Part shown: piece after piece, positions 21,869 to 58,554 of the stretch
Layout: every line of letters starts with the position of its first letter
Position numbering within the stretch: position 1 is the first letter of the stretch
Source of the DNA: Alphaproteobacteria bacterium
GTDB taxonomy: Bacteria > Pseudomonadota > Alphaproteobacteria > UBA828
DNA length: 64,000 nucleotides
Assembly (NCBI GenBank): GCA_965221125.1
Contig: CBDCRW010000003.1
Location: 128,001 to 192,000, forward strand
Reading direction: 5' to 3'
Notes under the pieces: generated by a model
The model's database searches: none
What the model was told of the DNA's origin: nothing
The model's input: the letters and a program-made list of their open reading frames with translations, nothing else
Program-made: the position numbers and the translations under genes

Positions 21869-21977
21869 GGCGTCGATTGCCGCTCAACTGCGGCGGACAG
21901 AGGCTATCCCGCCTGCGGTGGCCGTGCGATAACGGGTTGAACGATTCACGCCATCCGATGACGCAGGGAGAGGACGC

Positions 21978-24667: not shown

Positions 24668-24680
24668 GGGCGACTAGGAC

Positions 24681-25604
24681 TTGACGGCCTCGCTCATCGT
24701 CGAGCAGCTGCTGAACGGCCTGCAGTTCGGCGTCATGCTGTTCCTGATGGCGGCCGGGCTGACGCTGATCTTCGGCGTCATGGGTCTCATCAACCTCGCT
24801 CACGGCTCGTTCTACATGATCGGCGCGTTCGCCTGCGCGGCCGTCGCCGCCGCCACCGGCTCCTACTGGATCGGCCTCGCGGCGAGCCTGGCTGCGGCCG
24901 CCGCAGCGGGAGGTCTCGTGGAGGTCGCCGTCATCAGGCGGCTCTACCGCCGCGACCATCTGGATCAGGTGCTCGCGACCTTCGCCTTGATCCTGGTGTT
25001 CTCGGAGGGCACCCGCTGGGTGTTCGGCTCCTTTCCGCTCTATCTCGCCGTCCCCGAAATCCTCTCCGGGCCGGTGGCGCTGCCGGGCGGCATCGACTAC
25101 CCGCTCTTCCGGCTTGCGATCATCGTGGTCGGGATCGTGATCGCGGGCGGGCTCTTTCTCCTGATCGCGCGGACGCGCCTCGGCATCCGCATCCGGGCCG
25201 GCGAATCCGATCGCGAGATGATCGCAGCCCTCGGCGTCGATATCCGCAAGCTCTACACCACGGTATTCGCGCTCGGCGCGGCACTGGCGGGCTTCGCAGG
25301 CGCCCTGGTGGGCACGATCCAGTCTGTGCAGGTGGGCATGGGCGAACCCGTGCTGATCCTCGCCTTCGTCGTCATCATCATCGGCGGCCTCGGCTCCATC
25401 GGCGGCGCGCTGCTGGGCGCGATTCTGGTGGGGCTCACCGACACGCTCGGGCGCTTCCTGCTGCCGGTGCTGTTCGACACGTTCATGGATTCGTCGAGCG
25501 CCAACAGCGTCGGCTCGGCGATCGCCTCCATGCTCATCTACATCCTGATGGCGCTGGTCCTCTTCCTGCGCCCGACCGGCCTGTTCGGCACCAGGGCGCA
25601 CTGA
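24681..25604 (+). CDS. HAAT ABC transporter permease (LivH-like)
   Basis: QLLNGLQFG, GLTLIFGVMGLINLAHGSFYMIGA, RTRLGIRIRA, IIGGLGSIGGA; TTG start. Confidence 0.92.
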   Translation: MTASLIVEQLLNGLQFGVMLFLMAAGLTLIFGVMGLINLAHGSFYMIGAFACAAVAAATGSYWIGLAASLAAAAAAGGLVEVAVIRRLYRRDHLDQVLATFALILVFSEGTRWVFGSFPLYLAVPEILSGPVALPGGIDYPLFRLAIIVVGIVIAGGLFLLIARTRLGIRIRAGESDREMIAALGVDIRKLYTTVFALGAALAGFAGALVGTIQSVQVGMGEPVLILAFVVIIIGGLGSIGGALLGAILVGLTDTLGRFLLPVLFDTFMDSSSANSVGSAIASMLIYILMALVLFLRPTGLFGTRAH

Positions 25605-26584
25605 TGAGCCGGGAAGCCGCCATCAGTCTCCTGGTCGCGGCGGGGCTGCTCGCCGCGCCGCTCCTCGGCCACGCCTTCGACGAGCCCTTCGTCATCACGC
25701 TGGCGACGAAAGTGGCGATCCTGGGGCTGGCCGGCACCGGCCTCAACATCGCGCTCGGCTACGGCGGCATGGTCTCGCTCGGTCACGCGGCGTTCTTCGG
25801 GCTAGGCGGCTACGCGGCCGGCATCCTCGCGAGCCACGCGCTCAACTACGAGCCGCTCTTCACCGCGCCGCTGCTGGTCGAAGGCACGACGCAGATGCTG
25901 ATCATCTGGCCGGTCGCCCTCGCGGTGAGCGGCCTGGCGGCGCTGGTGATCGGCGCGCTTTCCTTACGCACCACCGGCGTCTTCTTCATCATGATCACGC
26001 TGGCCTTCGCGCAGATGGTCTACTACTTCGCCATCTCGTGGCCGGCCTACGGCGGCGAGGACGGGCTCTCGATCTACATCAGGAACGAGTTTCCGGGCCT
26101 CAACACGCTCGACCCGCTGCACTTCTTCGCCATCTGCTACGTGCTTCTCGGGTTCGCGATCGGCTTCTCCTTCCTGCTCTCGCACTCGCGCTTCGGGCAG
26201 GCGCTCAACGGTGCGCGGCAGAACGCGCAGCGGCTCGCCACGGTCGGCATCAGCCCCTTCCGCGTGAAGCTCACCGCCTTCGTCATCTCGGGCATGATGG
26301 CGGGGCTCGCCGGCGCGCTCTACGCCGACCTCAACCGCTTCGTGAGCCCGTCCATGCTGTCGTGGCACACGTCTGGCGAGATCATGGTGTTCGTGATCCT
26401 GGGCGGCACGCGGCGCCTCCTGGGCCCCGCCGCAGGGGCCGCCCTCTACATCGTGCTCGAGCACACGCTGGGCGACGTGAGCGAGCACTGGCTGCTGCTG
26501 CTGGGCGCGCTCCTGGTCGGGCTGGTGCTGTTCGCGCGCGGCGGCGTGATCGGCATTCTGGCGGGGCAACCCCGTCATGCCTGA
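25604..26584 (+). CDS. HAAT ABC transporter permease (LivM-like)
   Basis: GLNIALGYGGMVSLGHAAFFGLGGY, FIMITLAFAQM, GGEDG, SRFG, VILGG. Confidence 0.92.
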   Translation: MSREAAISLLVAAGLLAAPLLGHAFDEPFVITLATKVAILGLAGTGLNIALGYGGMVSLGHAAFFGLGGYAAGILASHALNYEPLFTAPLLVEGTTQMLIIWPVALAVSGLAALVIGALSLRTTGVFFIMITLAFAQMVYYFAISWPAYGGEDGLSIYIRNEFPGLNTLDPLHFFAICYVLLGFAIGFSFLLSHSRFGQALNGARQNAQRLATVGISPFRVKLTAFVISGMMAGLAGALYADLNRFVSPSMLSWHTSGEIMVFVILGGTRRLLGPAAGAALYIVLEHTLGDVSEHWLLLLGALLVGLVLFARGGVIGILAGQPRHA

Positions 26585-27341
26585 CCCGATCCTAGAGTTA
26601 GAGGGGCTCTCCAAGCGCTTCGGCGCGGTGGTCGCGAGCGACGACGTGACCCTCGACCTCGTGCCGGGCGAGATCCACGCGCTGATCGGGCCGAACGGCG
26701 CCGGCAAGTCCACGGTCATCAAGCAGGTCGCGGGCGAGATCCGGCAGGACAGCGGCTCCATCCGCTTCGCCGGCCGCGACATCGACCGCCTCGACATGGT
26801 GGCGCGCGCCAGGCTCGGACTCGCAAGGACCTTCCAGGTCTCCTCCGTCGCGCCCGAGTTCTCCGCGCTGCAGAACGTCATGCTCGCGGTGCAGTCGGTC
26901 GAACGGAAGACCTTCCGCTTCTTCAAGCCGGCGCTCCGCGAGGCATCGCTGACCGAGCCCGCGATGTCTTATCTCGTCCGCCTGCTGCTGGACGACCGGG
27001 CGGAGGTTCGCGCGGGCGACCTTTCCCACGGCGAGCGGCGGGCGCTGGAGATCGCCATCGCGCTCGCGCTCAAGCCCAAGGCCTTCCTGCTCGACGAGCC
27101 CATGGCCGGCATGGGGCCCGAGAACACGGCGACGCTGATCGGCATTCTCGACGGGCTGCGGGCGGAAGCCCCGATCCTGCTGGTCGAGCACGACATGGAC
27201 GCCGTGTTCGCGCTGGCGGACCGCATCTCCGTGATCGTCTACGGCCGCATCATCGCGAGCGGCACGCCGCAGGAGATACGTGCCAACGAAGAGGTGCGCC
27301 GCGCCTACCTCGGAGACGAGGGACATGACGGCGCTGCTTGA
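26577..27341 (+). CDS. HAAT ABC transporter ATP-binding protein (LivG-like)
   Basis: LIGPNGAGKST, GLARTFQ, LSHGERR, LLDEPMAG, LVEHDMD, VRRAYLG. Confidence 0.93.
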   Translation: MPDPILELEGLSKRFGAVVASDDVTLDLVPGEIHALIGPNGAGKSTVIKQVAGEIRQDSGSIRFAGRDIDRLDMVARARLGLARTFQVSSVAPEFSALQNVMLAVQSVERKTFRFFKPALREASLTEPAMSYLVRLLLDDRAEVRAGDLSHGERRALEIAIALALKPKAFLLDEPMAGMGPENTATLIGILDGLRAEAPILLVEHDMDAVFALADRISVIVYGRIIASGTPQEIRANEEVRRAYLGDEGHDGAA

Positions 27342-28014
27342 GGTCGCCGGCGTCACCGCCTTCTACGGCTCGTCGCAGGCGCTCTTCGGCGTGGACCTCG
27401 CCGTCGGCGAAGGCGAGGTGGTGGCGCTCATGGGGCGGAACGGCATGGGCAAGACGACCACCATCCGGACGATCTGCCGCATGATGCCGCACCGCGAAGG
27501 GCGCATCGCCTTCGCCGGCCACGACCTCGCCCGCCTGCCCTCGCACAAGGCGGCGTGGCTCGGCCTCGGACTGGTGCCGGAGGGCCGGCGCTGCTTCCCG
27601 ACGCTCACGGTGCGCGAGAACCTGACCGCCGCCGCCCGCAGCGGCCACTGGAGCGAGGAGCGGGTGATCGCGCTCTTCCCCCAGCTTGCCGAGCGCCGCC
27701 ATCAGAAGGCCAACACGCTCTCCGGCGGCGAGCAGCAGATGCTCGCCATCGGCCGGGCGCTCATGACCAATCCCCGCCTGCTCATCCTGGACGAAGCGAC
27801 GGAAGGGCTCGGCCCCCTCATCCGCCGGGAAATCTGGTCGGTGATCGCGCGGCTCAAGGAGGCCGGCCTCTCCATCCTCGTCGTCGACAAGTCCTTGAAG
27901 GAGCTCACCGCCACGGCAGAGCGCTGCGTCATCCTGGAGAAGGGAACGACCTGCTGGTCCGGCACGAGCGCCGATCTCACGCCGGAAACCACGGACCGAT
28001 ACCTGGGAGTGTAG
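27325..28014 (+). CDS. HAAT ABC transporter ATP-binding protein (LivF-like)
   Basis: MGRNGMGKTT, VPEGRR, LSGGEQQMLAIGRALM, LDEATEGL, RYLGV. Confidence 0.93.
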   Translation: MTALLEVAGVTAFYGSSQALFGVDLAVGEGEVVALMGRNGMGKTTTIRTICRMMPHREGRIAFAGHDLARLPSHKAAWLGLGLVPEGRRCFPTLTVRENLTAAARSGHWSEERVIALFPQLAERRHQKANTLSGGEQQMLAIGRALMTNPRLLILDEATEGLGPLIRREIWSVIARLKEAGLSILVVDKSLKELTATAERCVILEKGTTCWSGTSADLTPETTDRYLGV

Positions 28015-28018
28015 ACCC

Positions 28019-28840
28019 TCAGAAGCCGATCGCCTTGAACGCCCTGGTCTGCGCAGTCATGGCGACCTCGGTGGGCAGGCGCTCCATGCTGCTGGCGCCG
28101 TAGAAGCCGTGGACGTGCGCCGCGTTCTGCAGCACATACGTGGCGTCCTCGGGCGAGGCGATGGGCCCGCCGTGGCAGAGCACGATCACGTCGTCCCGCA
28201 CGGCCTTGGCCGCGAGCGCCCACGCGTCGATGAGCCCCACGCACTCCTCCAGCGACTTCGCGGTCTGCGCGCCGATGCTGCCGCTGGTGGTGAGCCCCAT
28301 GTGGCAGACGATGATGTCGGCGCCCGCCTGCGTCATGGCGACCGCGTCGTCCTCGGAGAAGACGTAGGGCGTGGTCAGCAGGTCGGCCTCGTGGGCCGCG
28401 CGGATCATGTCGACCTCCAGGCCGTAGCCCATGCCGGTCTCTTCCAGGTTGGCGCGGAAGACGCCGTCGATCAGCCCCACGGTCGGGAAGTTCTGCACGC
28501 CGGCGAAGCCCAGCCCCTTCAGCTCGTCGAGGAAGCGGCCCGGCACCATGAAGGGGTCGGTGCCGTTGACGCCGGCCAGCACCGGCGTGCGGCTCACCAC
28601 GGGGATCACCTCGTGCGCCATCTCCTTCACGATCTCGTTGGCGTTGCCGTAGGCGAGCAGGCCCGCGAGCGAGCCGCGGCCGGCCATGCGGTAGCGGCCG
28701 GAGTTGTAGATCACGATGAGGTCGATGCCGCCGGCCTCCTCGCACTTGGCCGAGAGCCCGGTGCCCGCGCCGCCGCCGATGATCGGCTCGCGGCGGGCGA
28801 CCATGCCGTGGAACTTGTCGAGAAGGCTGCGGCGATCCAT
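28019..28840 (-). CDS. TIM-barrel protein, phosphoenolpyruvate hydrolase-like family (resembles the Tm-1 C-terminal domain)
   Basis: [65 protein letters not shown]. Confidence 0.9.
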
Positions 28841-28871
28841 GCCCGGCACTGGCGGTCTCCCTGGCTCTCGG

Positions 28872-30071
28872 TCAGTCGGCGATCTCGGTCCAGCTCTCGA
28901 CGAGAGCCTGAGCGAAATCGGCGTCGTTGATGTGATGCGGCAGGCGGACCAGGCGCCTCGCGTCGGTCTGCACGACCGTGCGCTCCAGCGCCTCGAACAG
29001 CGCCGCGTCTGCGTCCGGGTCGTGGAACGGCATCCCCGGCGCGTCGATGAGCGAGACCCCCTTCTCTGGGATCAGGAAGCGCACCGGCCCCTCGCAGGCG
29101 TTGAGCCTGGCGCCGATCCACTCGCCCATGGCCCGGTTCTCGTCCGCCGTCGTGCGCATCAGGGTCACGTTGGGATTGTGGATGTGGAAGGTGCGGCCTT
29201 CGTACTGCGCCGGCACGGTCTCGCGCGCGCCGAAGTTCACCATGTCGAGCGCGCCGCAGGAGCCAACGTAGGGCAGGCCGGTCCGCGCGAAGGCGCCGAG
29301 GCGATCCTCGCCAGCGCTGAAGACCCCGCCCATGAGGTGGTCGCAGACTTCCGTCGTGGTGCTGTCGATGCAGCCCAGCACGAGGCCGGAATCGACCAGC
29401 TTCTCCATGGATTGTCCGCCGGTCCCGGTCGCGTGGAACACCAGGCAGTCGTAGCGCGCCTCCAGCGCGGCGCGGACCTGGTCTACGCAGGGCGTGGTCA
29501 CGCCGAACATGGTGAGCCCGATGGCGGGCTTGTCCTCGGCCGCCGGCGCGTCCGCCCGCATCATGCCGGCGAGCGCGTGGGCCGCGTTGGCGAGCACCAC
29601 GCGGGAGATCCGGTTGAGCCCGGCGACATCCACAACCGAGTACATCATCGTGATGTCGTTGGGGCCGACGTAGGGCGCGACGTTGCCCGACGCCACGGTG
29701 GAGACCAGCACCCGCGGCACCCCGATGGGAAGCGCCTGCATGCCGATGGAGACGAGCGCCGTATTGCCCGACCCCCCTGCGCCGATCACGCCGCCCACGT
29801 CCGCGCATGTCGGTAGGAAGCGCGCTAGCGCCGCGCCCATGGCGGCCACCGCCTGCCCGCGATCCTCGAGGCTCAGCACCGCCTCCGCGCCATCCGGATG
29901 GTGGGCGGCGACCTCCGCCGCGCTCACGTCCACATCCGCCGGCCTGGAGCCCGTGCCGGTGCCGACATCCACGACGCAGGCCCGCACGCCGTCCGCCGCC
30001 AGCAGGTCGCGGATATAGAGCAGCTCCGCGCCCTTGGTATCCAGGGTGCCGACGATATAGGCCCGTGCCAT
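28872..30071 (-). CDS. Tm-1-like ATP-binding domain protein (UPF0261)
   Basis: [88 protein letters not shown]. Confidence 0.92.
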
Positions 30072-30102
30072 CCTGCTTCCCCCGGGTGGTCCGCCCGCCC
30101 GC

Positions 30103-31440
<1,338 letters not shown>

Positions 31441-33751: not shown

Positions 33752-35281
33752 TCAGTGGTCGTGGCCCTCGTGGCCGCCCAGGGTCACCGTGTATTGCAGG
33801 ATGACCTGGTTGTCCTCCTCGCCGGCCGCGAGCTGCTCCCGGTTGTATTGCAGGCGGATCTGGCCGAAGTCGTCACTGGTCCAGTCACCCATGATGGCGA
33901 GGGCGCTCGGATTGTGGCCGGCTTCCGCTCCGCTCGGCGGTGAGAGTTGCGAATAGCGGGTTCCGATCCGCCATTGGGGCGCGAACTTGTAGACCGCCTG
34001 CGCGTACCAGCCGGCGCTCCTGTCATCGACGGCATGTTCGTGCTCGTCCAGGCCGTCATCGACCTGCCAGAGGTACTCGCCCTGGAGGATCAGCTCGCTC
34101 TGGCCCGCATCGCCCGTGGGCGCCCAGGCGAAGCGCATGTCGATGCCGAAGAGGTCGCGGTCGCCGCTGTAGAGGCCAGCGTACTCGTCCTCGCCCTCGT
34201 GACCGTGTTCGTCCTCGTCGTCGTGGTGCTCGTCCTCGTCGTGGTCGTCCTCGTCGTGGTCGTCCTCGTCGTGATGCTCGTCCTCGTCGTGGTCGTGCTC
34301 GTCCTCGTGCATCTCGTCGTCGTGGTGCTCGTCCTCGTGGTCGTCCATCTCGTGGGCGTGGCCGTGACCGCCACCGTCGCTGTCGACCTGGCCGCTGAGC
34401 AGCGACACGCCAATGCCCCACGACGAGTCGCGGCCCATGTCGCCGCCGATCCGCGCGAAGGCCGAGAGCGCCCGGCGCCCGTTGTCGGAGCCGATGAAGG
34501 GCTGGTCGTCGCCCCGGAACAGACCGCCGCCGATCTCCGTCCGTACGTCGCCGGGCAACGCGAGGGAAACCTGCAAGCCGTCGTCGTTGTACGCACCGTC
34601 CAGGAAGGCCCGGTAGGGCAAGGGCCGGTCGGCGAAGTCGTCTTCGTGCGCATGGCGCTCGTTGAGGTAGCCGAACGACCAGAGCTTGCGGCCCGCCGTC
34701 AGGGTCACCTCCTGGGGCAGCCGGGAGCCCGGCAGGGTCTGGATGTACGCCTCCTCAAGCTCGAGTTCCGTTGCTTCGCCAGGATGCGCACCGACGCCCA
34801 GCACGACAGCGGCGCGCAGCGCATCGCTGACATTGCTCGAAAGACTCAGCTCGCTGTGACCGAGCGAGAATCCCTCGGGCGCACGCTCGCTCTCATGCCC
34901 GAATTCGAACCCGCCGGCGATGTGCGAATCTTCGACCGAATGCGAGGCGAACATGCCCCTCAGCACCGCGCCGATCTGGGGAGCGAACGTCTCCCCATGA
35001 TCGTCGTGCGGGGTCATCGCGTCGTCGTGGCCGTGATCGTCGTGGCCGTGATCGTGCGGATCGGCCGCCTCGCCGGCTCTCCCGGATTGCAGCGCTTCGA
35101 GCTGCTCCTCCAGCGCCCTGATGCGGGCCTCGTATTCCTCCCGCAGCGTCGCAATCTCGACGGCGAGAATGGAAGCCATGGGCGTGTCGCCATCCGATTG
35201 TGCCTCCGCCTGCGGCGCGATCAGCGTCGTCGCAATGGCCGCGGTCGCGGCGGTGGCGGCAATGCCCACGGTGCGTCTCAT
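33752..35281 (-). CDS. Outer-membrane beta-barrel protein with His/Asp/Glu-rich tracts (putative zinc-regulated uptake protein)
   Basis: Signal peptide, coiled coil, GFSLGHSELSL, ELEEAYIQT, FGYLNERHAHEDDFADRP, LQGEYL, GWYAQAVYKF, IRLQYN, ILQYTVTLGGHEGHDH; a long H/D/E tract and a shorter one near the N-terminus. Confidence 0.8.
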   Translation of the reverse strand: MRRTVGIAATAATAAIATTLIAPQAEAQSDGDTPMASILAVEIATLREEYEARIRALEEQLEALQSGRAGEAADPHDHGHDDHGHDDAMTPHDDHGETFAPQIGAVLRGMFASHSVEDSHIAGGFEFGHESERAPEGFSLGHSELSLSSNVSDALRAAVVLGVGAHPGEATELELEEAYIQTLPGSRLPQEVTLTAGRKLWSFGYLNERHAHEDDFADRPLPYRAFLDGAYNDDGLQVSLALPGDVRTEIGGGLFRGDDQPFIGSDNGRRALSAFARIGGDMGRDSSWGIGVSLLSGQVDSDGGGHGHAHEMDDHEDEHHDDEMHEDEHDHDEDEHHDEDDHDEDDHDEDEHHDDEDEHGHEGEDEYAGLYSGDRDLFGIDMRFAWAPTGDAGQSELILQGEYLWQVDDGLDEHEHAVDDRSAGWYAQAVYKFAPQWRIGTRYSQLSPPSGAEAGHNPSALAIMGDWTSDDFGQIRLQYNREQLAAGEEDNQVILQYTVTLGGHEGHDH

Positions 35282-35352
35282 ATCTAGTCCCCCCTCGTCT
35301 GAATGAGCAGCGGCCCGACAGAGCGCCAGTGTTCCGCCGCCGTGTAAGCGTA

Positions 35353-35369
35353 ATGTTACAATATCACAT
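35353..35369. promoter_or_regulatory. Putative Zur (Fur-family) operator
   Basis: ATGTTACAATATCACAT, 2 mismatches from the near-palindromic consensus ATGTTATAATATAACAT. Next to a minus-strand TTGACG -35-like hexamer, about 70 bp upstream of the His-rich gene. Confidence 0.7.
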
Positions 35370-35471
35370 AGCGTCAAGTTATCATATATCCGGAATCGTT
35401 CGCTTCGCTCCGCAAGCTAGGTTCTCGGTGGTGTTAGGGGTGATCTCCGGCGGCGACGGCGCCACCCTTGC

Positions 35472-36128
35472 CTAGTAGGGCGCCCCCGAGAGGGACATCA
35501 TGACGGTCTGCTCGATGTCGGTGATCGCCTGGGCAAGCTCGCGGCCGATCAGGTCCATCTTGCGCAGCTGGTCGATGCGCGGGCGGCACTGCTCCATGTC
35601 CCGGTCGGGGAAGATCTCGCGGAGGATGTCGCACGCGTCCACCAGGCCGATCAGGGCGACGTCGCGGGGATGGGGAATGTCGTCGGAGAACAGGACGTCC
35701 CCGATCCGCAGCTTCACCTCCTGCTCGACGTTGCCGTCGATCGTGGGGTAGCGGCGGGCGCGGAACGCCCACATCACGCGGGCTTCGCGCTGCACGACGA
35801 TGCCGCGGGCGACGAGGCTCTGCAGCGCCTGCTCGCGGATGTTGGGCGCGTCTTCGACCGACAGCACCCTGATCCAGGTCCTCGTATCCGTCGGCGATCC
35901 CTGCGCCGCGATTTTCGCGAGCACGGGATCGACGATGGGACTCCCGGTGGGAGCCCGGTCCGTGATCACGAGGGAGTCGGGGTCGGTATCGATCCGGTTG
36001 GCGAACGCCAGATCCATCAGCACGGCGCCGGCGATGGCGCAGCCGAGGGTGGCCTTCGGAATCGGCACGAACGTGCCGTCCTTGTCGTCCAGCAGAAGGA
36101 GCAGAATCTCTTCGGTGAAGGTCAGCAT
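35472..36128 (-). CDS. GPP34/GOLPH3 (Golgi phosphoprotein 3) family protein
   Basis: MLTFTEEILLLLLDD, AGAVLMDLAFANRID, PTGSPIVD, LVARGIV, RRYP, PRDVALIGLVDAC. Start at ATG 36128; the ORF-track extension to 36974 overlaps the DegT gene. Confidence 0.8.
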   Translation of the reverse strand: MLTFTEEILLLLLDDKDGTFVPIPKATLGCAIAGAVLMDLAFANRIDTDPDSLVITDRAPTGSPIVDPVLAKIAAQGSPTDTRTWIRVLSVEDAPNIREQALQSLVARGIVVQREARVMWAFRARRYPTIDGNVEQEVKLRIGDVLFSDDIPHPRDVALIGLVDACDILREIFPDRDMEQCRPRIDQLRKMDLIGRELAQAITDIEQTVMMSLSGAPY

Positions 36129-36167
36129 GGGTCGCGGTCCCCGACTGTTGCCAGGGACAGCGTAGAG

Positions 36168-36316: not shown

Positions 36317-37471
36317 TCAGCTTCTGGCGGCATCCCGCACGGCGCGGGCGATCCGCGTCGCCGCCGCCTCGTCGAGGTCGGCGTGCATGGGCAGGCACAG
36401 CACCTGGCGGCAGAGGCGCTCGCTCACCGGCAGCGAGCCGGGGCCCTCGCCCCAGCCCCGATAGGCCGGCTGCAGGTGCATCGGCAGCGGATAGTGGATC
36501 GCGGTCGGGATCGCCTGCGCAGAAAGCACCGCCTGCACCGCGTCCCGGTTCTCCAGGCGGATCGTGTACTGCGCCCACGTGGAGCGCCGCGCCGGCAGCC
36601 GCCCCGGCAACGCGACGACGCCCGCGAGGCCCGCGTCGTACCACCCGGCCACCCGCCCGCGCGCGTCGATCTCCGCATCCAGGGCCGCGAGCTTCACCAG
36701 CAGGACCGCCGCCTGCAGCGTGTCGAAGCGGCTGTTGAGGCCGAGTCGGACGATGTCGTACTTGTCCCCGCCCGTGCCGTGCTGACGGATGGAGCGCCAG
36801 CGGTCCGCCCGCGCCGCATCGTCGGTGAAGAGCGCGCCGCCGTCTCCATAGCAGCCGAGTGGCTTGGCCGGGTAGAAGCTGGTCGTCGTGACCGGCGCGA
36901 GCGCGCCGACGGGCCGCCCGCCGCTCGCCCCGCCGAAGCTCTGCGCCGCATCGTCGATCAGCAGCATCTCCCACCGCGCCGCGATGGGGGCGAGCGCGTC
37001 GTAGTCCGCCGCCTGGCCGAAGAGGTCCGCCGCGATGACCGCGCGCGGCACGAGCCGCCCCTCTTCCGCGACGCGAGCGACCTGCACCGCGAGGTCGGCG
37101 GGGTCGATCATGTAGGTCTCCTCCACCACGTCGACGAAGACCGGCGCAGCCCCGATCAGCGCCACGACCTCCGCCGTCGCGGTGAAGGTGAAGCTCGGGA
37201 TGAAGACGGCATCGCCCGGTCCGATCCCCTCGGCCATCAGCGCGATCTGAAGCGCATCGGTCCCGCTCGCGCAGGTGACCGCGTGAGCGGCGCCGGCGCG
37301 CGCGGCAAGCGCTGCCTCGAGCTCGGCCACCGCCGGCCCCATGACGTAGCGGCCATCCTCGAGGACGCGCGCGATCGCGGCGTCGATATCGGGCTTGAGC
37401 CGCCGGTACTGCGCGCGCAGGTCGATGAAGGCGATGGGCCCGGGGCTGGTGTCGCGATCGGTGGATGACAT
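36317..37471 (-). CDS. DegT/DnrJ/EryC1/StrS family PLP aminotransferase
   Basis: [72 protein letters not shown]. Confidence 0.93.
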
Positions 37472-37681: not shown

Positions 37682-39346
37682 ATGGCGACCAGGCTACCCA
37701 TCGGCGACGACGACGCGCAGGCTGCGGCTGCCTCCAAGGCCGCGCGGCTGCGTGCCCTGCTGCGCGCCCCTGCCCTCTCCTTCATCATGGAGGCACACAA
37801 CGGGCTCTCCGCCAAGATCGTGGAGGAGGCCGGGTTCGAGGGCATCTGGGCCTCGGGCCTCTCCATGTCGGCCGCGCTCGGCGTGCGCGACAACAACGAG
37901 GCCTCGTGGACCCAGGTCCTCGAAATGCTGGAGTTCATGGCCGACGCCACCACGGTCCCGATCCTTGTGGACGGCGACACCGGCTACGGCAACTTCAACA
38001 ACGTGCGCCGCCTGGTGCAAAAACTCTGCCAGCGCGGCATCGCCGGGGTCTGCATCGAGGACAAGCTGTTCCCCAAGACCAACTCCTTCATCGGTGAGAA
38101 CCAGCCGCTGGCGGACGTGGAGGAGTTCTGCGGCCGCATCAAGGCCGGCAAGGACAGCCAGAGCGACGACGACTTCCAGATCGTGGCTCGCGTGGAAGCG
38201 CTGATCGCCGGCTGGGGCATGGAGGAAGCGCTGCGCCGGGCCGAGGCCTATCGCGGGGCCGGCGCCGATGCGGTCCTCATCCACTCCAAGAAGGCGACCG
38301 CCGACGAGATCACCGGCTTCTGCGAGGCCTGGGAGGGCCGTGCGCCCGTGGTCATCGTGCCCACCATGTACCACCGCACGCCGACGCAGACATTTCGGGA
38401 CGCCGGCGTCTCCATGGTGATCTGGGCGAACCACAACATGCGGGCCGCGGTCTCCGCCATGCGCCAGGTGAGCAAGGCGATCCGGGAGAGCGAATCGCTC
38501 GTCGAAGTTGAGGACGAGATCACGCCGGTGCGCGAGGTGTTCGCGCTCACGGGCCAGGCGGAGCTTGCGGCGGCCGAGGCGCGCTATCTCGCCGCAGCCG
38601 GCGGTCACAGCGCGATCCTGCTTGCGGCATCGCGCGGCGGCAAGCTCGGCCCGCTCACCGAGCAGCGGCCGAAGTGCATGATCGACGTGCGCGGCGAGCC
38701 GCTGCTGCAGCGCTTGGTGCGGACGCTGAACCGGAGCGGCGTCGGCGCGGTGACCGTGGTGCGCGGCTACCGCAAGGAGGCCATCGACATCCCCGGCATC
38801 GAGGCGGTCGACAACGACCGCTACGACGAGACCGGCGAAGCCGCCTCCCTCGCCTGCGCCAGCGAGCGCCTCCACGGACCCTGCCTGATCTCCTACGGCG
38901 ACATCCTGTTCCGCCGGCACGAGCTGGACGGCCTGCTCGCCGCGGACGGCGACATCGTCACGGTGGTCGATGCGAGGCGCCGGACAGAATCCTCCCGCGC
39001 GCCCGACCGCGCGGTCGACTGGGTGCGCTGCTCCCGCCCCTTCACCGGCGGCTACCTCGACGACGAGCGCGTGACGCTGGAGGCGATCTGGAACGGCACG
39101 GACGGCGCCGAGACCGCCCACGGCGAGTTCATCGGCCTGACGCGGCTGAGCGCCGACGGCGCCGCGCTGGTCCGCTGCGTGCTCGACGCCATGTGCGAGG
39201 ACGGCACCCTCGACCGCGCCGACCTCCCCGACGTCCTCGCCCGCCTCGTCGCCCAGGGCGCTGCCATCGACGTGCTCTACATCAACGGCCACTGGCTCGA
39301 CGTGGACGACGCCTTCGACCTCGCTAGCCTTCGCAACCTGGTGTAG
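37682..39346 (+). CDS. pepM: Phosphoenolpyruvate mutase fused to a nucleotidyltransferase (PntC-like cytidylyltransferase)
   Basis: [24 protein letters not shown], PepM-diagnostic [23 protein letters not shown]-terminal NTP transferase ILLAASRG...RPKCM, VRGY, SYGDILF, GHWLDVD. Confidence 0.93.
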
Positions 39347-39351
39347 CCGCC

Positions 39352-41199
39352 ATGGAAGACCTGCCCCTCTCCGATCCGGATACCATCGTCGTCGGCGGCG
39401 ATCCGATGACGGCCGAAGCGCCGGACTTCGACCCGATGCTGCTCTCGGTGCTCTCCAGCCGCTTCGGCGCCATCCTGCGCGAGATGAGCAACGGCGTGCT
39501 GCGTGCCAGCAAGTCGGGCGTCATCAAGATCGCGCGCGACATGTCCTGCGCCATCCTCACCTACGACCACCGCCTCGTCTGCATCGAGGAGTGCATCCCG
39601 GTGCACGCGGCGGCCATCGACCTCACGACCCGCCCGCTCACCGAGTTCTTCGACGACATCGAGGACGGCGACGCCTTCCTCAACAACTGCCCGTATACGG
39701 GCGTCACGCACCACGCGGACCTCACCATCTGCGTGCCGGTGTTCTTCGGCGGCAAGCCGCTCTTCTGGACCGTCTCGCGCGCCCACCATGCCGATGTCGG
39801 CGCGCCGATCCCGTCGACCTACCTGCCCTACGCCAAGACCATCTACGAGGAGGGGCTGCACTTCCCCGGCGTGCGCGTGGAACGCGGCTACAAGGAGCTC
39901 CGCGACATCATCCGCATGGCGAAGATGAAGGTGCGGGTGCCGGATCTCTGGTACGGCGACTACCTCGCGCAGGTGGGCGCCTGCCGCACCGCCGAGCGGC
40001 GCATCAAGGAGCTGGTGGAGAAGTACGGGCCGGAGACCATCGCCCGGTTCGTCGAGGCCTGGATGGCCTACGGCGAACGCCGCGCCGCCGCCGCCATCCG
40101 GACGCTGCCGGAAGGCTCGTGGTCGTACGAGAACCGCCACGACCCGTTGCCGGGCGTCGCCGACGAGGGCATCCCGGTCCGCGCGCGGGTCACAGTCGAC
40201 CCCGGCGAGGCGACCATCACGGTGGACGTGCGCGACAACATCGACTGCATCCCCGGCGGGCTCAACCTGAGCGAGACCTGCGCCATCGCCGCCTGCCGCG
40301 CCGGCGTCTTCTACAACATCGACCACACCATCCCGCACAACGAGGGCAGCGCGCGGCGCATCCGCGTGCTGCTGCGGGATGGCTGCATCGTCGGCCGGCC
40401 GCGCTATCCCGTCGGCACCTCGGTCGCCACCACCAATGTCACCGACCGGCTGGTGAACGCGGTCTCCTGCTGCTTCGCGCAGATCGGGCCGACGCACGGC
40501 ATGGCGGAAGGCGGCTACCAGCAGGCGCTGGGCCTCGCAGTGATTTCCGGCGAAGACCCGCGCCGCGACGGCCAGACCTACGTCAACCAGATGTTCATCG
40601 GCTTCGGCGGCGGGCCGGGGCTGCCGGGGCACGACGGCTGGGTCACGTATGGCGGGCCGGTGGACGGCGGCATGCAGATCCTCTCGCCCACCGAGGTCGA
40701 CGAGAGCATGTTCCCCATCCACTTCGAGTGCCGGGAGCTTGCCATCGACACGCTCGGCCACGGCGAGTGGGACGGCGCGCCGGGCACGCTCGCCGTCTAC
40801 GGCCCCACCGCCGGCGAGATGACCGCCGTCTACTGCAGCGACGGCGACACCTATCCGTCCAAGGGCGTGCGCGGCGGCGGCGACGGCGCGCCCTCGGTCA
40901 ACCAGAAGCGCAGGCCCGACGGCACGCTCGCCACCCTCCCCTCCTTCCACGAGGAACGCTGCGCCCCCGGCGAGATGTTCCGCTTCGTCACCACGGCCGG
41001 CGGCGGCTACGGCGATCCTGCGCGGCGCGAGCCCGCGGCGGTCGCACGCGCGGTCGACAACGGCTGGCTCAGCCCGGAGAAGGCCGAAGAGGTCTACGCC
41101 GTGGCGCTCCGTCTCGCCGACGACGGCATCCGCCACGAGGTCGACGGCACGGAGACCGCGCGCCTCCGCCAGGCGCAGAACGGCGGGGCCGGCAGCTAG
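39352..41199 (+). CDS. Hydantoinase B/oxoprolinase family subunit
   Basis: SGVIKIARDMSCA, NNCPYTGVTHHAD, AHHADVG, IYEEGL, AGGGYGDP. Start may instead be ATG 39406. Confidence 0.9.
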   Translation: MEDLPLSDPDTIVVGGDPMTAEAPDFDPMLLSVLSSRFGAILREMSNGVLRASKSGVIKIARDMSCAILTYDHRLVCIEECIPVHAAAIDLTTRPLTEFFDDIEDGDAFLNNCPYTGVTHHADLTICVPVFFGGKPLFWTVSRAHHADVGAPIPSTYLPYAKTIYEEGLHFPGVRVERGYKELRDIIRMAKMKVRVPDLWYGDYLAQVGACRTAERRIKELVEKYGPETIARFVEAWMAYGERRAAAAIRTLPEGSWSYENRHDPLPGVADEGIPVRARVTVDPGEATITVDVRDNIDCIPGGLNLSETCAIAACRAGVFYNIDHTIPHNEGSARRIRVLLRDGCIVGRPRYPVGTSVATTNVTDRLVNAVSCCFAQIGPTHGMAEGGYQQALGLAVISGEDPRRDGQTYVNQMFIGFGGGPGLPGHDGWVTYGGPVDGGMQILSPTEVDESMFPIHFECRELAIDTLGHGEWDGAPGTLAVYGPTAGEMTAVYCSDGDTYPSKGVRGGGDGAPSVNQKRRPDGTLATLPSFHEERCAPGEMFRFVTTAGGGYGDPARREPAAVARAVDNGWLSPEKAEEVYAVALRLADDGIRHEVDGTETARLRQAQNGGAGS

Positions 41200-43278
41200 A
41201 TGGCCGAGGCTCCGCCGCCCGGCGACTTCCGGGTCTGTATCGATATCGGCGGCACGTTTACCGACTGCGTCGTCTCGGACGCGGACCAGCGCCTGCGTAT
41301 CTTCAAGACCCCGTCGACGCCCGCCGCGTTCGAGCTCGGCTTCATGAACGCGCTGAAGCTCGCGGCGGACGGCTACGGGCTGCCGCTCCCCGATTTCATG
41401 GCGCGCGTGGCCCGCATCGTCCACGGCACGACGGTCTCCACCAACGCGCTGCTGGAGGAGAAGCACGCGCCGGTCGGCCTGATCTGCACCCACGGCTTCC
41501 GCGACATCCTCACGCTGCGCGAGGCGCCGCGGAAGCCGCCCTTCCACTGGCGCCTCGCCTACCCCGAGCCCTTCGTGCCCCGCATCAGGACGCGCGGCGT
41601 GCGCGGGCGGATCGACGCCACCGGCGCGGAGCACACGCCGCTGGAAGAGGACGACGTGCGCGCGGCGGTCGAGGACTTTCGCAAGCTCGGCGTCGAGGCC
41701 GTCGCCGTCTGCCTGCTCTGGTCGGTGGTGAACGGCAACCACGAGCGGCGCGTCGGCGAGATCGTGCGCGAGGCCTGGCCCGAGGTCCCGGTCACGCTCA
41801 GCCACCGCCTCAATCCCATCGCCCGCGAGTATCGCCGCGCCGTCTCCGCCGCCATCGACGCCGCGCTCAGGCCGGTGGTGAGCGCCTACGTCCACGCGCT
41901 CGACCGGGGCCTGCGCAAGAGCGGCTACGGCAACGAGCTGATGATCGCCAATTGCCTGGGCGGGATGATGCCGCCGGACGAAATCGCCGAGCGGCCGATC
42001 TACAGCGTGATGTCGGGGCCGACGCTTGCGCCGGTCGCGGCAAAGCGGCTCGCGGATGCGCCCGATCTCGTGGTCGTCGACATGGGCGGCACCTCCTTCG
42101 ACGTCTCCGCCGTGCGCGACGGCCAGCTCGTCATCTCGCCCGAGGCGATGCTGACCGAGTTCGACATGCTGGGCATCCCCAAGGTGGACGTGCGCTCCGT
42201 GGGCGCGGGCGGCGGCTCGATCGCGCACGTGGACGCCGGCGGGCTGCTGCGCGTGGGGCCCGAGAGCGCCGGCGCGGACCCCGGCCCAGCCTGCTACGGC
42301 CTCGGCGGCATGCGGCCGACCGTCACCGACGCCGACGTGGTGCTCGGCATCATCGATCCCGACTACTTCCTCGGCGGCCGGATGCACCTCGACAGGGAAG
42401 CGGCGGAGCACGCGGTCGGCACCATCGCCGATGCGCTCGGCATCGGGCTTGCGGCTGCGGCCCGCGCCATCGCGAGTGCGGTCGATCACACCATGATCGC
42501 CGCCATCGAGGACATCACCGTGCAGGAGGGGATCGACCCGCGCGAGAGCTACTTCGTCGCCGGCGGCGGCGCCACCGCCGTGCACATGGGGCAGATGGCG
42601 CGCGTGCTCGGCATCAAGGGCTACATGGTGCCGAAATTCTCGGCGGGGCTCAGCGCTTTCGGCGGCCTCATCTCCGACATCGTGTGGGAGGAGACGGCGA
42701 CGCTGGTGACCGACGCCGCCCGCTTCGACGTGGACGGCGTCAATGGCTTGCTCGGCCAACTGGAGGAGCGCGGCCGCGCTTTCCTCGCGCGCGCAGGCAT
42801 CGCCGAGGCCGACCAGCGCTTCGAGTACGCCTATCTCGGCCGCTACCAGTACCAGTCATGGGAGATCGAAGTGCCGTTCGCTGCGGCGGACGGCGCCCTT
42901 GCGGCGAGCGACGTGGCCGGGCTCGCCGACGGCTTCCACCGGATGCACGAGCGCATCTACACCATCAAGAACGAGAACGACCTCGTCGAGTTCACCACCT
43001 GGAAGGTCCGCGCCATCGGGCCCGCGGCGGCCGACCTCGCGCCTGCGGAAGGCGCGGCGGCCGCGCAGGACGCGAAGCCCCACGGCACGCGCCTGATTCA
43101 CCTGCCCGGCCGGGGCGCGCCCGAGATTGTGCCGGTCTACCGCGGCGACGACCTCGCGCCCGGCGCCCGCATCGCGGGCCCGGCAATCGTCGAGGAAGCG
43201 ACCACCACCGTCCTCGTGCCGGAAGACGCCGAAGCCCTGACTGACCCCCTCGGCAACTACCGCGTGACGCTGGAATAA
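41200..43278 (+). CDS. Hydantoinase A/oxoprolinase family subunit
   Basis: IDIGGTFTD, HGTTVSTNALL, SGPTLA, DMGGTSFD, VGAGGGS, GPESAGADPGPACYG, GPAIVEEATTT; starts 1 bp after the upstream stop. Confidence 0.92.
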   Translation: MAEAPPPGDFRVCIDIGGTFTDCVVSDADQRLRIFKTPSTPAAFELGFMNALKLAADGYGLPLPDFMARVARIVHGTTVSTNALLEEKHAPVGLICTHGFRDILTLREAPRKPPFHWRLAYPEPFVPRIRTRGVRGRIDATGAEHTPLEEDDVRAAVEDFRKLGVEAVAVCLLWSVVNGNHERRVGEIVREAWPEVPVTLSHRLNPIAREYRRAVSAAIDAALRPVVSAYVHALDRGLRKSGYGNELMIANCLGGMMPPDEIAERPIYSVMSGPTLAPVAAKRLADAPDLVVVDMGGTSFDVSAVRDGQLVISPEAMLTEFDMLGIPKVDVRSVGAGGGSIAHVDAGGLLRVGPESAGADPGPACYGLGGMRPTVTDADVVLGIIDPDYFLGGRMHLDREAAEHAVGTIADALGIGLAAAARAIASAVDHTMIAAIEDITVQEGIDPRESYFVAGGGATAVHMGQMARVLGIKGYMVPKFSAGLSAFGGLISDIVWEETATLVTDAARFDVDGVNGLLGQLEERGRAFLARAGIAEADQRFEYAYLGRYQYQSWEIEVPFAAADGALAASDVAGLADGFHRMHERIYTIKNENDLVEFTTWKVRAIGPAAADLAPAEGAAAAQDAKPHGTRLIHLPGRGAPEIVPVYRGDDLAPGARIAGPAIVEEATTTVLVPEDAEALTDPLGNYRVTLE

Positions 43279-43284
43279 CCGAAC

Positions 43285-44127
43285 TCAGGGCTTTCGGCCG
43301 ATTGCGGCGCCCCAAGCGAAGGCGGCGAAGGCGCCGGGCTCCTCCATCCATTCGTCGAGCGAACGGCGCCAGCGCTCGAACTGCTCCTCGCTCGCCAGCC
43401 CGTGCTTGATGGCCGCCGCCATGGTGAGCGGCGAGAAGAACCAGCCGACGATCAGGCCATGGAGAAAGCCCAGGTCGTCGGCCGTGTCGTACGTCTCGAA
43501 GGAGGCGGAGGCGCGAACGTCGACGAACCCGGCCTCGACGAACGCGGCCTTCAGCTCCCTGCCCATCTGCGGGTGGCCGCCGTTGGCCGCGAGCAGCTTG
43601 AGGAAGGTCGCCCACACGGTCTCGCCGATGATGCCGCCGATGTCGCGCGCGGGCTCGACGAAGGACGAATCGCCGAATACCTCGCGCGCGGCGAACAGCC
43701 CGCCCGGCTTCAGCACCCGCTTCACCTCGGCCAGCACCGCCTGCGTAGCCGGCGCATGGTTGAGCAGGGCGTGGCAGTGGACCACGTCGAACGAGGCGTC
43801 GTCGAAGGGAAGGCCGGTCGCGTCGCCGGTCCGGAACGAGGCGTTGTCGTGCCCGCCGGCCTTGGCAGCGGCGTTGGCCATCTCGACCTGCGTCTCCTCC
43901 ATGTCCACGCCGTCCACCGTGCCGGGCGCCACCGCCTCCGCCAGGCCTACGGAAATCGTGCCGGGCCCGCAGCCGAGGTCGAGCAGGCGCATGCCGGGCC
44001 TGAGGTGCGGCAGCAGGTGAGCGGCGCAGTCCGCCGCGTTTCGCCGCTCCAGCATCTTTCGGAATTCCGGGCCGTAGCCCATCGTGTAGGTGGGCGTGGA
44101 CTCGCTCGCCGATTCGTCGCGGCTCAT
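43285..44127 (-). CDS. Class I SAM-dependent methyltransferase
   Basis: LLPHLRPGMRLLDLGCGPGTIS, GVDM, LPFDDASFDVV, RVLKPGG; start placed at ATG 44127. Confidence 0.9.
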   Translation of the reverse strand: MSRDESASESTPTYTMGYGPEFRKMLERRNAADCAAHLLPHLRPGMRLLDLGCGPGTISVGLAEAVAPGTVDGVDMEETQVEMANAAAKAGGHDNASFRTGDATGLPFDDASFDVVHCHALLNHAPATQAVLAEVKRVLKPGGLFAAREVFGDSSFVEPARDIGGIIGETVWATFLKLLAANGGHPQMGRELKAAFVEAGFVDVRASASFETYDTADDLGFLHGLIVGWFFSPLTMAAAIKHGLASEEQFERWRRSLDEWMEEPGAFAAFAWGAAIGRKP

Positions 44128-44230
44128 GAGAGGCTCCTTGGTTCGTCCTGCTTGAATTGACATTTGAGAAACGTTTTGCACCGTATTCAATTAATTGATA
44201 AGCGCCGGCCCGGCAAAAGGAGGCGTTCAG

Positions 44231-44379: not shown

Positions 44380-45201
44380 CTAGAGGCCGGACAGGAACTC
44401 CGCCAGGATTTCGTTGAACCTGTCGGGATACTCCCAGAACATCATGTGCCCGCCGAAGGCGTCGACGCGCGCGTTGGGGCAGTGCTTCGCCAGGAAAGGC
44501 CTTGCCGTCTCGGCCCAGTGGTCGGCGACGAAGAAGACGGAAGGAATCTCCGTGTCCACCTGCTTCGCCTCCTCCAGGTAGTTGGCGAAGCACACGTCGG
44601 CGATGAGGTTGGCGGCGATGAGCGGCGGCGTCGCCAGCGACTGCTCGACCACCCACGCGGTCACTTCCGGCGTCAGCTCGCCTTCGATCATGATGTTGTC
44701 GGCGTACCAGGTGACGACGGCGCGCTGCCCCTGCGCGGTCTGCACTCCCTGGAAGAACCCGGCGAGAGCGTCGATCGCCCCCTCGACCCAGTCGCTCGTC
44801 TCGTAGCTCATCCCGAGCGGCGGCATGTCGACGGAGACCAGGCCCCGGATGCCGCCGGTGCCCCGATTGCGGACGTGGTGCCAGGCGGTGAGCGAACCCG
44901 CCGACCAGCCGACGAGAACCGGGTTCTCCACGGACAGGTGATCGAGGAGCGCGGCCAGATCGGCGGCCTGGGTGGCGTAGTTGTTGCCGTCGCTGGTCAC
45001 GGTCGAGCGCCCGTGACTGCGCGGGTCGAACGAGATGACCCGATGGGTGCCCGCGAACGCTGCGAACTGGTGGTCGAACACCCGGGTGGTGAAGGTCCAG
45101 CCGGGGATCAGGACGAGCGGAGGTCCCTCCCCCTCGTCCTCGTAGTAGATGTCGACGCCGGGCGCGACTTCGACGTAAGAGCCGATGCGTTGAGCGGTCA
45201 T
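44380..45201 (-). CDS. Alpha/beta hydrolase
   Basis: YYEDEGEGPPLVLIPGW, FDPRSHGRS, nucleophile elbow VGWSAG, GHMMFWEYPDRFN. Confidence 0.9.
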   Translation of the reverse strand: MTAQRIGSYVEVAPGVDIYYEDEGEGPPLVLIPGWTFTTRVFDHQFAAFAGTHRVISFDPRSHGRSTVTSDGNNYATQAADLAALLDHLSVENPVLVGWSAGSLTAWHHVRNRGTGGIRGLVSVDMPPLGMSYETSDWVEGAIDALAGFFQGVQTAQGQRAVVTWYADNIMIEGELTPEVTAWVVEQSLATPPLIAANLIADVCFANYLEEAKQVDTEIPSVFFVADHWAETARPFLAKHCPNARVDAFGGHMMFWEYPDRFNEILAEFLSGL

Positions 45202-45240
45202 GCTCCCTCCTGCCAAGGGCCGGTCGGCTGCGCTCTGCCG

Positions 45241-46254
45241 TCAGCCGCTGCGATAGATGTAGCTGTAGGCGTTGATCGCCGGCACGCCGCCGAGATGAGC
45301 GTAGAGCACCCGCGAGCCGGCCGGGAAAAAACCCGTCCGCACGAGGTCGATCATGCCCTGCATGGATTTCCCCTCGTAGACGGGGTCCGTCATCATCCCC
45401 TCAAGGCGCGCCGCGAGACGGATCGCCTCGTTGGTCTCCGCCGACGGCACGCCGTAGTTGGGATAGGCGTAGTTCTCCAGCAGGACCAGATCCTCATCGG
45501 CGATCTCGCGGCCGAGTTCCACGAGGTCCGCCGTGTTGCGCGCGATGTCCATGACCTGCGCACGGGTCTCCGCCGGCGTCGCGGACGCATCGATGCCGAT
45601 GACCCTGTCGGCGCGCCCGTCCCTGGCGAAGCCCACGAGCATGCCGGCATGGGTGGAGCCCGTGACGGTGCAGACGACGACGTAGTCGAACGTGAAGCCG
45701 AGCTCCTGCTCCTGCGCCCTCACCTCTTCGGCGAAGCCGACGTAACCGAGGCCGCCGAACTTGTGGACCGACGCGCCGGCCGGGATGGGATAGGGCTTCC
45801 CTCCCTGCGCCTTCACATCCTCGATCGCCTTCAGCCAGCTCTCGCGAATGCCGATGTCGAAGCCTTCGTTGACCAGCTCGATTTCCGCGCCCATCACGCG
45901 GCTCATCAGGATGTTGCCGACCCGGTCGTAGACGGCGTCCTCGAACGGCACCCAGCTCTCCTGCACGAGGCGGCACTTCATGCCGAGCTTGGCGGCGACG
46001 GCGGCGACCTGGCGCGTGTGGTTGGACTGCACGCCCCCGATGGTGACGAGCGTATCGGCGTTGGACGCGATGGCGTCGGGCACGATGTACTCGAGCTTGC
46101 GGATCTTGTTGCCGCCAAAGGCGAGGCCCGAGTTGCAGTCGTCCCGCTTGGCGTAGAGCTGGACGGCGCCGCCCAGGTGGTCGGACAACCGGCCCAGATG
46201 CTCGATGGGCGTCGGCCCAAAGGTCAGGGGATAGCGCTCGAACTTCTCCAGCAT
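45241..46254 (-). CDS. acdS: 1-aminocyclopropane-1-carboxylate deaminase
   Basis: [62 protein letters not shown]. The Glu and Leu that distinguish ACC deaminase from D-cysteine desulfhydrase are present. Confidence 0.93.
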
Positions 46255-46410
46255 TCCGTCCGCAAGCTCCCTCGAAGGGCGGCGTCCTCCGCACAATCCC
46301 AACACAACCGCCCCCGCCGCGTCCACTGTCGGACGCCCGTGGCGCCGAAGCCGCTCAAGGCGGCACCGTTCCCAGGGAGCAGGAAACGACTATGCTGCCC
46401 GTGCACTTCG

Positions 46411-58466: not shown

Positions 58467-58554
58467 GATCTCCCAATCGTCGAAATGGCGCGCGATTCTG
58501 GGCGTGCCCCGCGGCGAATGCAACCGGACGGGCGAGCGCAGCCGGGGAGGCAGG

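Follow-up and report, generated by a model that had tools for sequence, protein, structure and literature searches.

Many phosphoenolpyruvate (PEP) mutases (Ppm, or PepM) are fused to a nucleotidyltransferase. In the portions of the published inventories drawn on here, 33% of Ppm proteins are fusions with a PF12804 domain (Rice et al. 2019, PMC6697681), and Ppm-PntC fusions are common in gene clusters of the 2-aminoethylphosphonate (AEP) type, while ∼13% of ppm neighbourhoods are left 'unclassified' (Li & Horsman 2022, PMC8942020). Here we describe such a fusion in a 64,000-nucleotide stretch of DNA (the window) from an alphaproteobacterium of the lineage UBA828 (GCA_965221125.1). The window corresponds to C3:128001-192000 in an assembly that totals 4.58 Mb over 7 contigs (C) and is estimated to be 92% complete with 5.8% contamination. 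Its pepM gene, which encodes a PEP mutase-nucleotidyltransferase fusion (PepM-NT), is followed by genes for the B and A subunits of a hydantoinase/oxoprolinase (HydB and HydA, together HydBA) and lacks the usual partners at its side. A sequence-only reading had proposed a non-canonical phosphonate locus. That proposal finds little support in our analysis, as the canonical partners are present in the genome, though dispersed. With a probability of roughly 80%, judged from sequence comparison, pepM encodes an ordinary Ppm-PntC fusion that would belong to a dispersed but complete pathway to AEP and its cytidine monophosphate (CMP) conjugate, and HydBA would be a clade-specific chance neighbour.

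The fusion itself closely resembles described proteins. Like the Ppm-PntC fusions of AEP-type phosphonyl-tailoring clusters, as far as these are set out in the parts of PMC6697681 and PMC8942020 consulted, it consists of a PF13714 domain with the EDKxxxxxNS motif followed by a PF12804 domain, and its genome encodes equivalogs of phosphonopyruvate decarboxylase (Ppd) and AEP transaminase (AEPT). Unlike in those clusters, the ppd and AEPT genes lie on a different contig, and pepM is followed by a gene for a hydantoinase B subunit. A more distant parallel is Fom1 of fosfomycin biosynthesis, described in the same part of PMC6697681, in which PepM is likewise fused to a phosphonate-activating nucleotidyltransferase; the transferase of Fom1 is N-terminal and belongs to PF01467, whereas that of the window is C-terminal and belongs to PF12804.

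PepM-NT matches the PEP mutase model TIGR02320 at equivalog level (402.9 bits against a cut-off of 319.55), and the models for phosphonopyruvate hydrolase, PrpB and carboxyphosphonoenolpyruvate (CPEP) mutase each stay below their own cut-offs. The catalytic motif EDKxxxxxNS, as defined in the consulted part of PMC6697681, is matched in its translation. The C-terminal part matches PF12804 with 49.3 bits (cut-off 27) at residues 375-500 of a 618-aa open reading frame (ORF), and its nearest solved relatives are LicC (1JYK, E 8.3e-11) and the PntC-AEPT protein Tde1415 (6PD1, E 1.2e-5). PepM-NT is thus a genuine PEP mutase fused to a nucleotidyltransferase of the PntC/LicC type, with activities that are predicted from these matches. 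The sequence-only reading had picked out both the motif and the fused nucleotidyltransferase, and its interpretation of the latter as PntC-like is consistent with published work, where such fusions were already known (PMC6697681, in the part consulted). Its description of the gene order also stands: hydB opens 5 bp after the pepM stop (TAG at 39344-39346, hydB ATG at 39352), and Pfam confirms a divergent DegT-type aminotransferase upstream and a convergent S-adenosylmethionine (SAM)-dependent methyltransferase downstream. HydA does directly follow hydB as claimed, but the spacer measures 0 bp rather than 1 bp (stop at 41197-41199, hydA ATG at 41200), a trivial difference.

Both missing partners are encoded elsewhere in the genome. 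Whole-genome searches with models for Ppd (TIGR03297) and AEP transaminase (TIGR03301) gave no match within the window. HMGL-type Pfam families likewise had no match among the window ORFs scanned, which were those outside the gaps at 11.1-13.3, 23.4-24.7 and 25.6-26.5 kb and other than ORFs 1-2543, 17331-21868, 58402-59073 and >61052. The sequence-only reading, which had recognized neither enzyme in the 64 kb, offered two explanations: a coupling enzyme elsewhere in the genome, to be sought genome-wide, or an undescribed coupling or tailoring step performed by HydBA or DegT. The genome-wide search bears out the first. The sole Ppd above the curated cut-off is at C7:570884-571972 (TIGR03297, 408.4 bits vs 312.5), and a PhnW/AepZ equivalog is at C7:336019-337071 (468 bits vs 360.8; TIGR02326, 472.6 vs 400.8), where it adjoins a pyruvate carboxylase gene. 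The two are separate orphan genes on C7, neither near pepM, and do not form a contiguous ppm-ppd-aepT cluster. A genome search for the phosphonatase PhnX reached 42 bits at best against a cut-off of 220. The genome also encodes a split alpha/beta pair resembling sulfopyruvate decarboxylase (C6:250466-251439), which matches TIGR03297 below the cut-off (124 + 51 bits) and is present in all relatives searched.

Comparison with related loci suggests that the arrangement in the window is a derived one. We compared 80 loci (L), drawn from 453 confirmed relatives. The C7 Ppd has a homologue (45-78% identity) in 61 of them, immediately after the fusion in 58 and ∼2.8 kb away in the other three; an AEPT homologue occurs in 44. 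Among the 19 loci without Ppd, seven are of the window's own clade, seven have <1.4 kb of downstream sequence and five have adequate sequence. We also compared the window with two same-genus loci (L019 and L020, from genomes G026 and G027, which are also G006 and G007), where the order is PolA, PepM-NT, Ppd, a radical-SAM protein on the opposite strand, ABC1 and PntAB. These loci share with the window the ABC1 and PntAB right flank and a PepM-NT that is 79% identical, and the Ppd directly 3′ of their pepM is 76-78% identical to the unlinked Ppd on C7. They differ in that the window has HydB, HydA, a methyltransferase, a hydrolase and a 1-aminocyclopropane-1-carboxylate (ACC) deaminase in place of Ppd and the radical-SAM protein, and in that its left flank consists of DegT, GPP34 and other genes rather than PolA.

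A quick maximum-likelihood tree built from 68 Ppd sequences unites seven orphan Ppd proteins in one group (SH-aLRT 86). This group is sister to the pepM-linked Ppd of L019/L020 (SH-aLRT 96) and is nested among pepM-linked alphaproteobacterial Ppd. Copy numbers point the same way: the clade genomes G001-G005 and G010 each have a single Ppd, unlinked to pepM, and in G006-G009 the Ppd at pepM is the only one above the cut-off. The order ExbB-Ppd-TAXI seen in the window's genome is kept in 5/5 close relatives. A TAXI orthologue that would mark an ExbB-TAXI locus without ppd was sought in G006 and G007, with none at E<=1e-60, so it is the tree and the single-copy counts that give the direction of the ppd move. 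The AEP transaminase equivalog is single-copy and unlinked in 5/5 related genomes, including two with a canonical pepM-Ppd order, which implies that the pathway was partly dispersed before ppd moved.

A survey of the genus gives a similar picture. We drew 18 other genomes, 17 of which have PepM; the remaining one (G011) has a Ppd. PepM-NT is intact, with the full motif and a score above the cut-off, in 16 of the 17, and a contig end truncates it in the last (G020). Of these 17 genomes, 15 have an intact Ppd, and in three (G022, G026 and G027) Ppd directly follows PepM-NT.

The hydantoinase pair belongs to a family that is expanded in this organism. The genome holds 38 matches to PF02538 (Hydantoinase_B) above the Pfam cut-off in 4.58 Mb, the hydB at pepM being one of them, and relatives have 15-33 HydA matches per genome. 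With 38 paralogues, chance adjacency to pepM is not negligible. HydBA contains every Pfam domain of both subunits of the ATP-dependent hydantoinase/oxoprolinase family, which includes caprolactamase (CapAB), N-methylhydantoinase and the acetone and acetophenone carboxylases. Unlike CapAB and acetophenone carboxylase, it misses all NCBIfam equivalog cut-offs: HydA scores 571.9 bits with caprolactamase alpha (CapA; cut-off 1000), HydB scores 236.3 bits with its nearest NCBIfam model, caprolactamase beta (CapB; cut-off 1000), and the pair reaches 293.7 of 1500 with ApcC and 127.6 of 1500 with ApcD. Among solved structures, HydA comes closest to 6YRA (E 2.8e-128), followed by the N-methylhydantoinase 7HK5 (E 1.1e-106). 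The most likely function of HydBA is ATP-dependent hydrolysis of a cyclic amide, such as a lactam or N-methylhydantoin, with a predicted role that is catabolic rather than phosphonate-related. A second Hydantoinase_B match in the window (C3:148105-149688) is also among the 38 and lies in a ∼1339-aa open frame (17852-21868, +) that is probably a HydA-HydB fusion; downstream of it are an amidase gene and a Liv-type ATP-binding cassette (ABC) transporter (21933-23426 and 24678-28014).

The linkage of HydBA to pepM is confined to one same-genus subclade. Orthologous HydBA (89-95% identity) accompanies pepM at only six of the 80 loci (L014-L018 and L022), with exact pepM-hydB spacers of 296, 5, 1085, 4387, 1069 and 2328 bp; the hydantoinase at L023 is an unrelated paralogue (25-35% identity). 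No such linkage was found in independent lineages among the 80 loci. In the genus survey, HydBA lies downstream of pepM on the same strand in 14/17 genomes (HydB identity 92-95%). By arithmetic on match coordinates, these spacers are ∼5, 5, 20 and 296 bp, six of ∼1.04-1.09 kb, and 2.3, 2.6, 4.4 and 13.2 kb, ranging from ∼5 bp in G012 and G024 to ∼13.2 kb in G019. The spacer is filled differently among genomes. In L016 and L018 it contains a same-strand gene for a PhyH-family Fe/2-oxoglutarate dioxygenase (11695-12603 in each), and in L017 an alcohol dehydrogenase gene on the opposite strand together with a DDE transposase. The L016 PhyH has no phosphonate-specific NCBIfam match, and the window's genome has a PhyH homologue at C4:372559-373413 (67%).

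HydB orthologues (88%) also occur far from pepM, at distances of 1.1 Mb (G022), 0.1 Mb (G026) and 1.95 Mb (G027), and in G008 the HydBA orthologue is on a contig other than that of pepM. HydBA of G006/G007 sits in an operon-like, same-strand run of a ProX/OpuAC-type ABC transporter, a CoA-transferase III, HydB and HydA, with a sarcosine-oxidase-like flavin-dependent (FAD) amine oxidase ∼1 kb downstream; by its gene content this run looks like a catabolic uptake operon. The converse case is L021 (genome G005), which keeps DegT, PepM-NT, the methyltransferase, the hydrolase and ACC deaminase, with the methyltransferase converging directly on pepM. A search across that genome found no HydBA orthologue; its best HydA match is 62%.

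These observations suggest both a route and a history. Judged from family membership, the PepM domain would convert PEP to phosphonopyruvate, the unlinked Ppd would decarboxylate this to phosphonoacetaldehyde and so pull the unfavourable equilibrium, the unlinked PhnW/AepZ-type transaminase would form AEP, and the fused PF12804 domain would activate AEP to CMP-AEP as the donor for decorating a surface lipid or glycan. We propose that the ancestor had PepM-NT directly followed by Ppd and that ppd was then relocated to the ExbB/TAXI locus in one subclade. The region 3′ of pepM would have turned variable and gained HydBA, and in some lines also PhyH, a transposase and other genes, and deletions would have brought hydB to within 5 bp of pepM in a few genomes, that of the window included. 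HydBA most likely became the neighbour of PepM-NT by recent rearrangement, and the 5 bp spacing is, on this comparative evidence, most likely the product of rearrangement and compaction, although it may permit read-through transcription. The sequence-only reading had held that ppd and aepZ elsewhere in the genome, together with no conserved hydantoinase linkage in relatives, would make the arrangement a chance adjacency. In substance this is what we find, with the qualification that ppd and aepZ are orphans rather than a cluster.

Several observations weigh against the explanation by chance adjacency. The order of events rests on the quick maximum-likelihood tree only. In the region C7:567279-572137 (equal to L013:10279-15137), no base separates the C7 Ppd gene from a same-strand gene for a TAXI-type solute-binding protein of a tripartite ATP-independent periplasmic (TRAP) transporter, and a DctM-DUF3394 fusion is next in line on that strand; a catabolic use of this Ppd on an imported 2-oxo acid, e.g. 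phosphono- or sulfopyruvate, is conceivable. In G012 (98% complete, 10 contigs; L139-L141), PepM-NT and HydBA are ∼5 bp apart and no Ppd exceeds the cut-off; its only TIGR03297-type match is the split sulfopyruvate-decarboxylase-like pair (118.7 + 59.2 bits), and its TAXI locus lacks Ppd and ExbB, with another gene in their place. G020 also has no detected Ppd, but it is merely 62% complete. In G012, an 879-aa open frame seemingly joins the nucleotidyltransferase domain to HydB, but we rejected it as a fusion: off-frame ORFs of this kind are typical of DNA with 69% GC, and in the window a stop immediately 5′ of 39328 interrupts this frame.

Other such observations concern HydBA directly, and they favour a reading in which this subclade has taken HydBA, and in some species PhyH as well, into its phosphonate operon. 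The role of HydBA would then be an ATP-dependent tailoring or coupling step, e.g. the opening or closing of a cyclic amide on an aminophosphonate, or the consumption of phosphonopyruvate. The same-strand linkage persists in 15 genomes besides the window's (the 14 of the genus survey and that of L015), and the spacer measures 5 bp in the window, L015, G012 and G024. The PhyH dioxygenase between pepM and hydB in L016 and L018 is a plausible tailoring enzyme, and spacers of equal size (∼1.05 kb) are present in another four genomes, making six in the genus with PhyH read in those two. Close orthologues of the G006/G007 transporter and CoA-transferase genes are lacking in the window's genome (best matches 30-55%), so the original context of the pair is lost there. 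The absence of a detected Ppd from G012 also fits. Finally, the pepM/hydB junction is bridged by a 245-nt RNA-library contig (X15, record 3; 39293-39537), although the source of this contig is a relative and DNA carry-over is possible. In four RNA-library runs, pepM, hydB and hydA are covered in part by Logan contigs, which derive from relatives and are mostly 88-95% identical; such contigs show neither transcript, strand nor level, and we give them little weight.

Recruitment is nonetheless unlikely in our assessment. HydBA orthologues are unlinked to pepM in four genomes (G022, G026, G027 and G008), two of which have them in the transporter/CoA-transferase context, and G005 has the phosphonate genes without a HydBA orthologue. 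Spacers extend to 13 kb, one with a transposase, and related loci beyond the subclade have no orthologous HydBA. Ppd and AEPT are retained in nearly all these genomes, and the 38 paralogues make chance adjacency plausible. The second explanation of the sequence-only reading is therefore not borne out for HydBA, whose linkage is restricted to one subclade, has spacers of 5 bp to ∼13 kb, and is broken or absent in relatives. The more specific idea that the captured HydBA (and PhyH in some species) now acts on a phosphonate, through an ATP-driven step on an aminophosphonate-derived cyclic amide or an ATP-dependent pull on phosphonopyruvate that replaces Ppd, as G012 might suggest, strikes us as quite improbable. 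Were it so, phosphonates would be substrates of an ATP-dependent enzyme of the hydantoinase family, a type of reaction new to C-P metabolism. A full-text literature search that paired phosphoenolpyruvate mutase with hydantoinase, with supplementary Figures S4 and S6 of PMC8942020 outside its scope, returned no paper linking the two, its one result being an unrelated study of acetophenone carboxylase. A search for hydantoinase and creatinine in sponge symbionts found none, and one for phosphonate biosynthesis in such symbionts gave a paper about chlamydiae.

DegT could in principle act on a phosphonate rather than on a nucleoside diphosphate (NDP)-keto-sugar, converting phosphonopyruvate to phosphonoalanine or phosphonoacetaldehyde to AEP, possibly in CMP-activated form, and so provide a PalB-like alternative pull on the PepM equilibrium. 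Early branching by aminotransfer to phosphonoalanine is known from 9.2% of the ppm neighbourhoods in the consulted part of PMC8942020, but the phosphonopyruvate aminotransferases known there are PF00155 proteins of the PalB type, not PF01041. DegT is divergent from pepM in the window, in G012 and in L014-L018 and L021 (82-93% identity), and homologues with 61-62% identity lie inside the pepM loci L024 and L026; these last two carry Ppd too, however, and L019 and L020 have no DegT near pepM. The best NCBIfam matches of DegT are sugar aminotransferases of the PseC and ArnB types, all below cut-off, and the genome has a dedicated AEPT equivalog. We consider a phosphonate substrate for DegT very unlikely. 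That the pathway is decaying, with pepM a relic without phosphonate output after the dispersal of ppd and aepZ, is scarcely credible: the three core genes are indeed scattered, G012 has no detected Ppd and G011 has Ppd but no PepM, yet PepM-NT and Ppd are intact across nearly all of the surveyed genus (the 17th PepM-NT being at a contig end), AEPT is intact in 5/5 genomes searched, and pepM-covering contigs occur in metatranscriptome libraries, a weak point.

The remaining genes around pepM are listed in Table 1. Genes of the window, which has a GC content of 69%, were called by third-position GC and checked by Pfam scans.

Table 1. Features around the PEP mutase gene; coordinates are those of the window
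Feature	Coordinates	Strand	Evidence and remarks
UPF0261 and PF09370 'PEP hydrolase-like' pair	28022-30116	-	Upstream of pepM
AptA-type omega-aminotransferase gene		-	Upstream of pepM
Polysaccharide deacetylase gene		-	Upstream of pepM, beyond DegT
NmrA-like gene		-	Upstream of pepM, beyond DegT
554-aa ORF	33755-35416	-	Upstream of pepM, beyond DegT
GPP34-family (Golgi phosphoprotein 3) gene	35475-36161	-	Upstream of pepM, beyond DegT
DegT/DnrJ/EryC1-family pyridoxal phosphate (PLP) aminotransferase	36320-37471	-	PF01041 321.9 bits; 210 bp intergenic to divergent pepM
PEP mutase-nucleotidyltransferase fusion, 554 aa	37682-39346	+	PF13714 221.5 bits, PF12804 49.3 bits
PepM domain of fusion	~37748-38557	+	
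PF12804 domain of fusion	~38612-38989	+	
Hydantoinase/oxoprolinase B subunit (HydB), 615 aa	39352-41199	+	PF02538 413.7 bits
Hydantoinase/oxoprolinase A subunit (HydA), 692 aa	41200-43278	+	PF05378 166.9 bits, PF01968 245.3 bits, PF19278 40.5 bits
Class I SAM-dependent methyltransferase	43285-44190	-	PF13847, PF13649, PF08241; convergent on hydA, 6 bp gap
Alpha/beta hydrolase	44380-45240	-	PF00561
ACC deaminase	45241-46389	-	PF00291; TIGR01274 574.7 bits vs cut-off 392
ABC1 kinase-like gene, PntAB			Further downstream of ACC deaminase

The methyltransferase has no NCBIfam model above cut-off. The alpha/beta hydrolase and ACC deaminase genes are syntenic with pepM in L015, L016, L018, L021 and G012. 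On the other side of pepM, neither Pfam nor NCBIfam gives a match for the 554-aa ORF, and its features in the ESM Atlas resemble those of outer-membrane barrel proteins, which we treat as a lead only. It was considered as a phosphonate transferase and rejected. This ORF and the GPP34 gene (33755-36161) are kept beside DegT and pepM in L014, L018 and L021. The PF09370 and UPF0261 pair lies 8 kb upstream of pepM, and both of its members are found in L021 at 82-91% identity. Further upstream, a 610-aa ORF (15322-17151, +) has DDE transposase domains as well as a DruA-like (Druantia) domain.

The locus shows that a ppm neighbourhood can be devoid of all known branch-point enzymes and still be part of a complete canonical pathway that is scattered over the genome. 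The 'unclassified' ppm neighbourhoods of published inventories may include such dispersed cases, and whole-genome checks are needed before new chemistry is proposed. A family expanded to 38 copies in 4.6 Mb can yield a tight, operon-like adjacency by chance, and classification of ppm loci by neighbourhood only can mislead.

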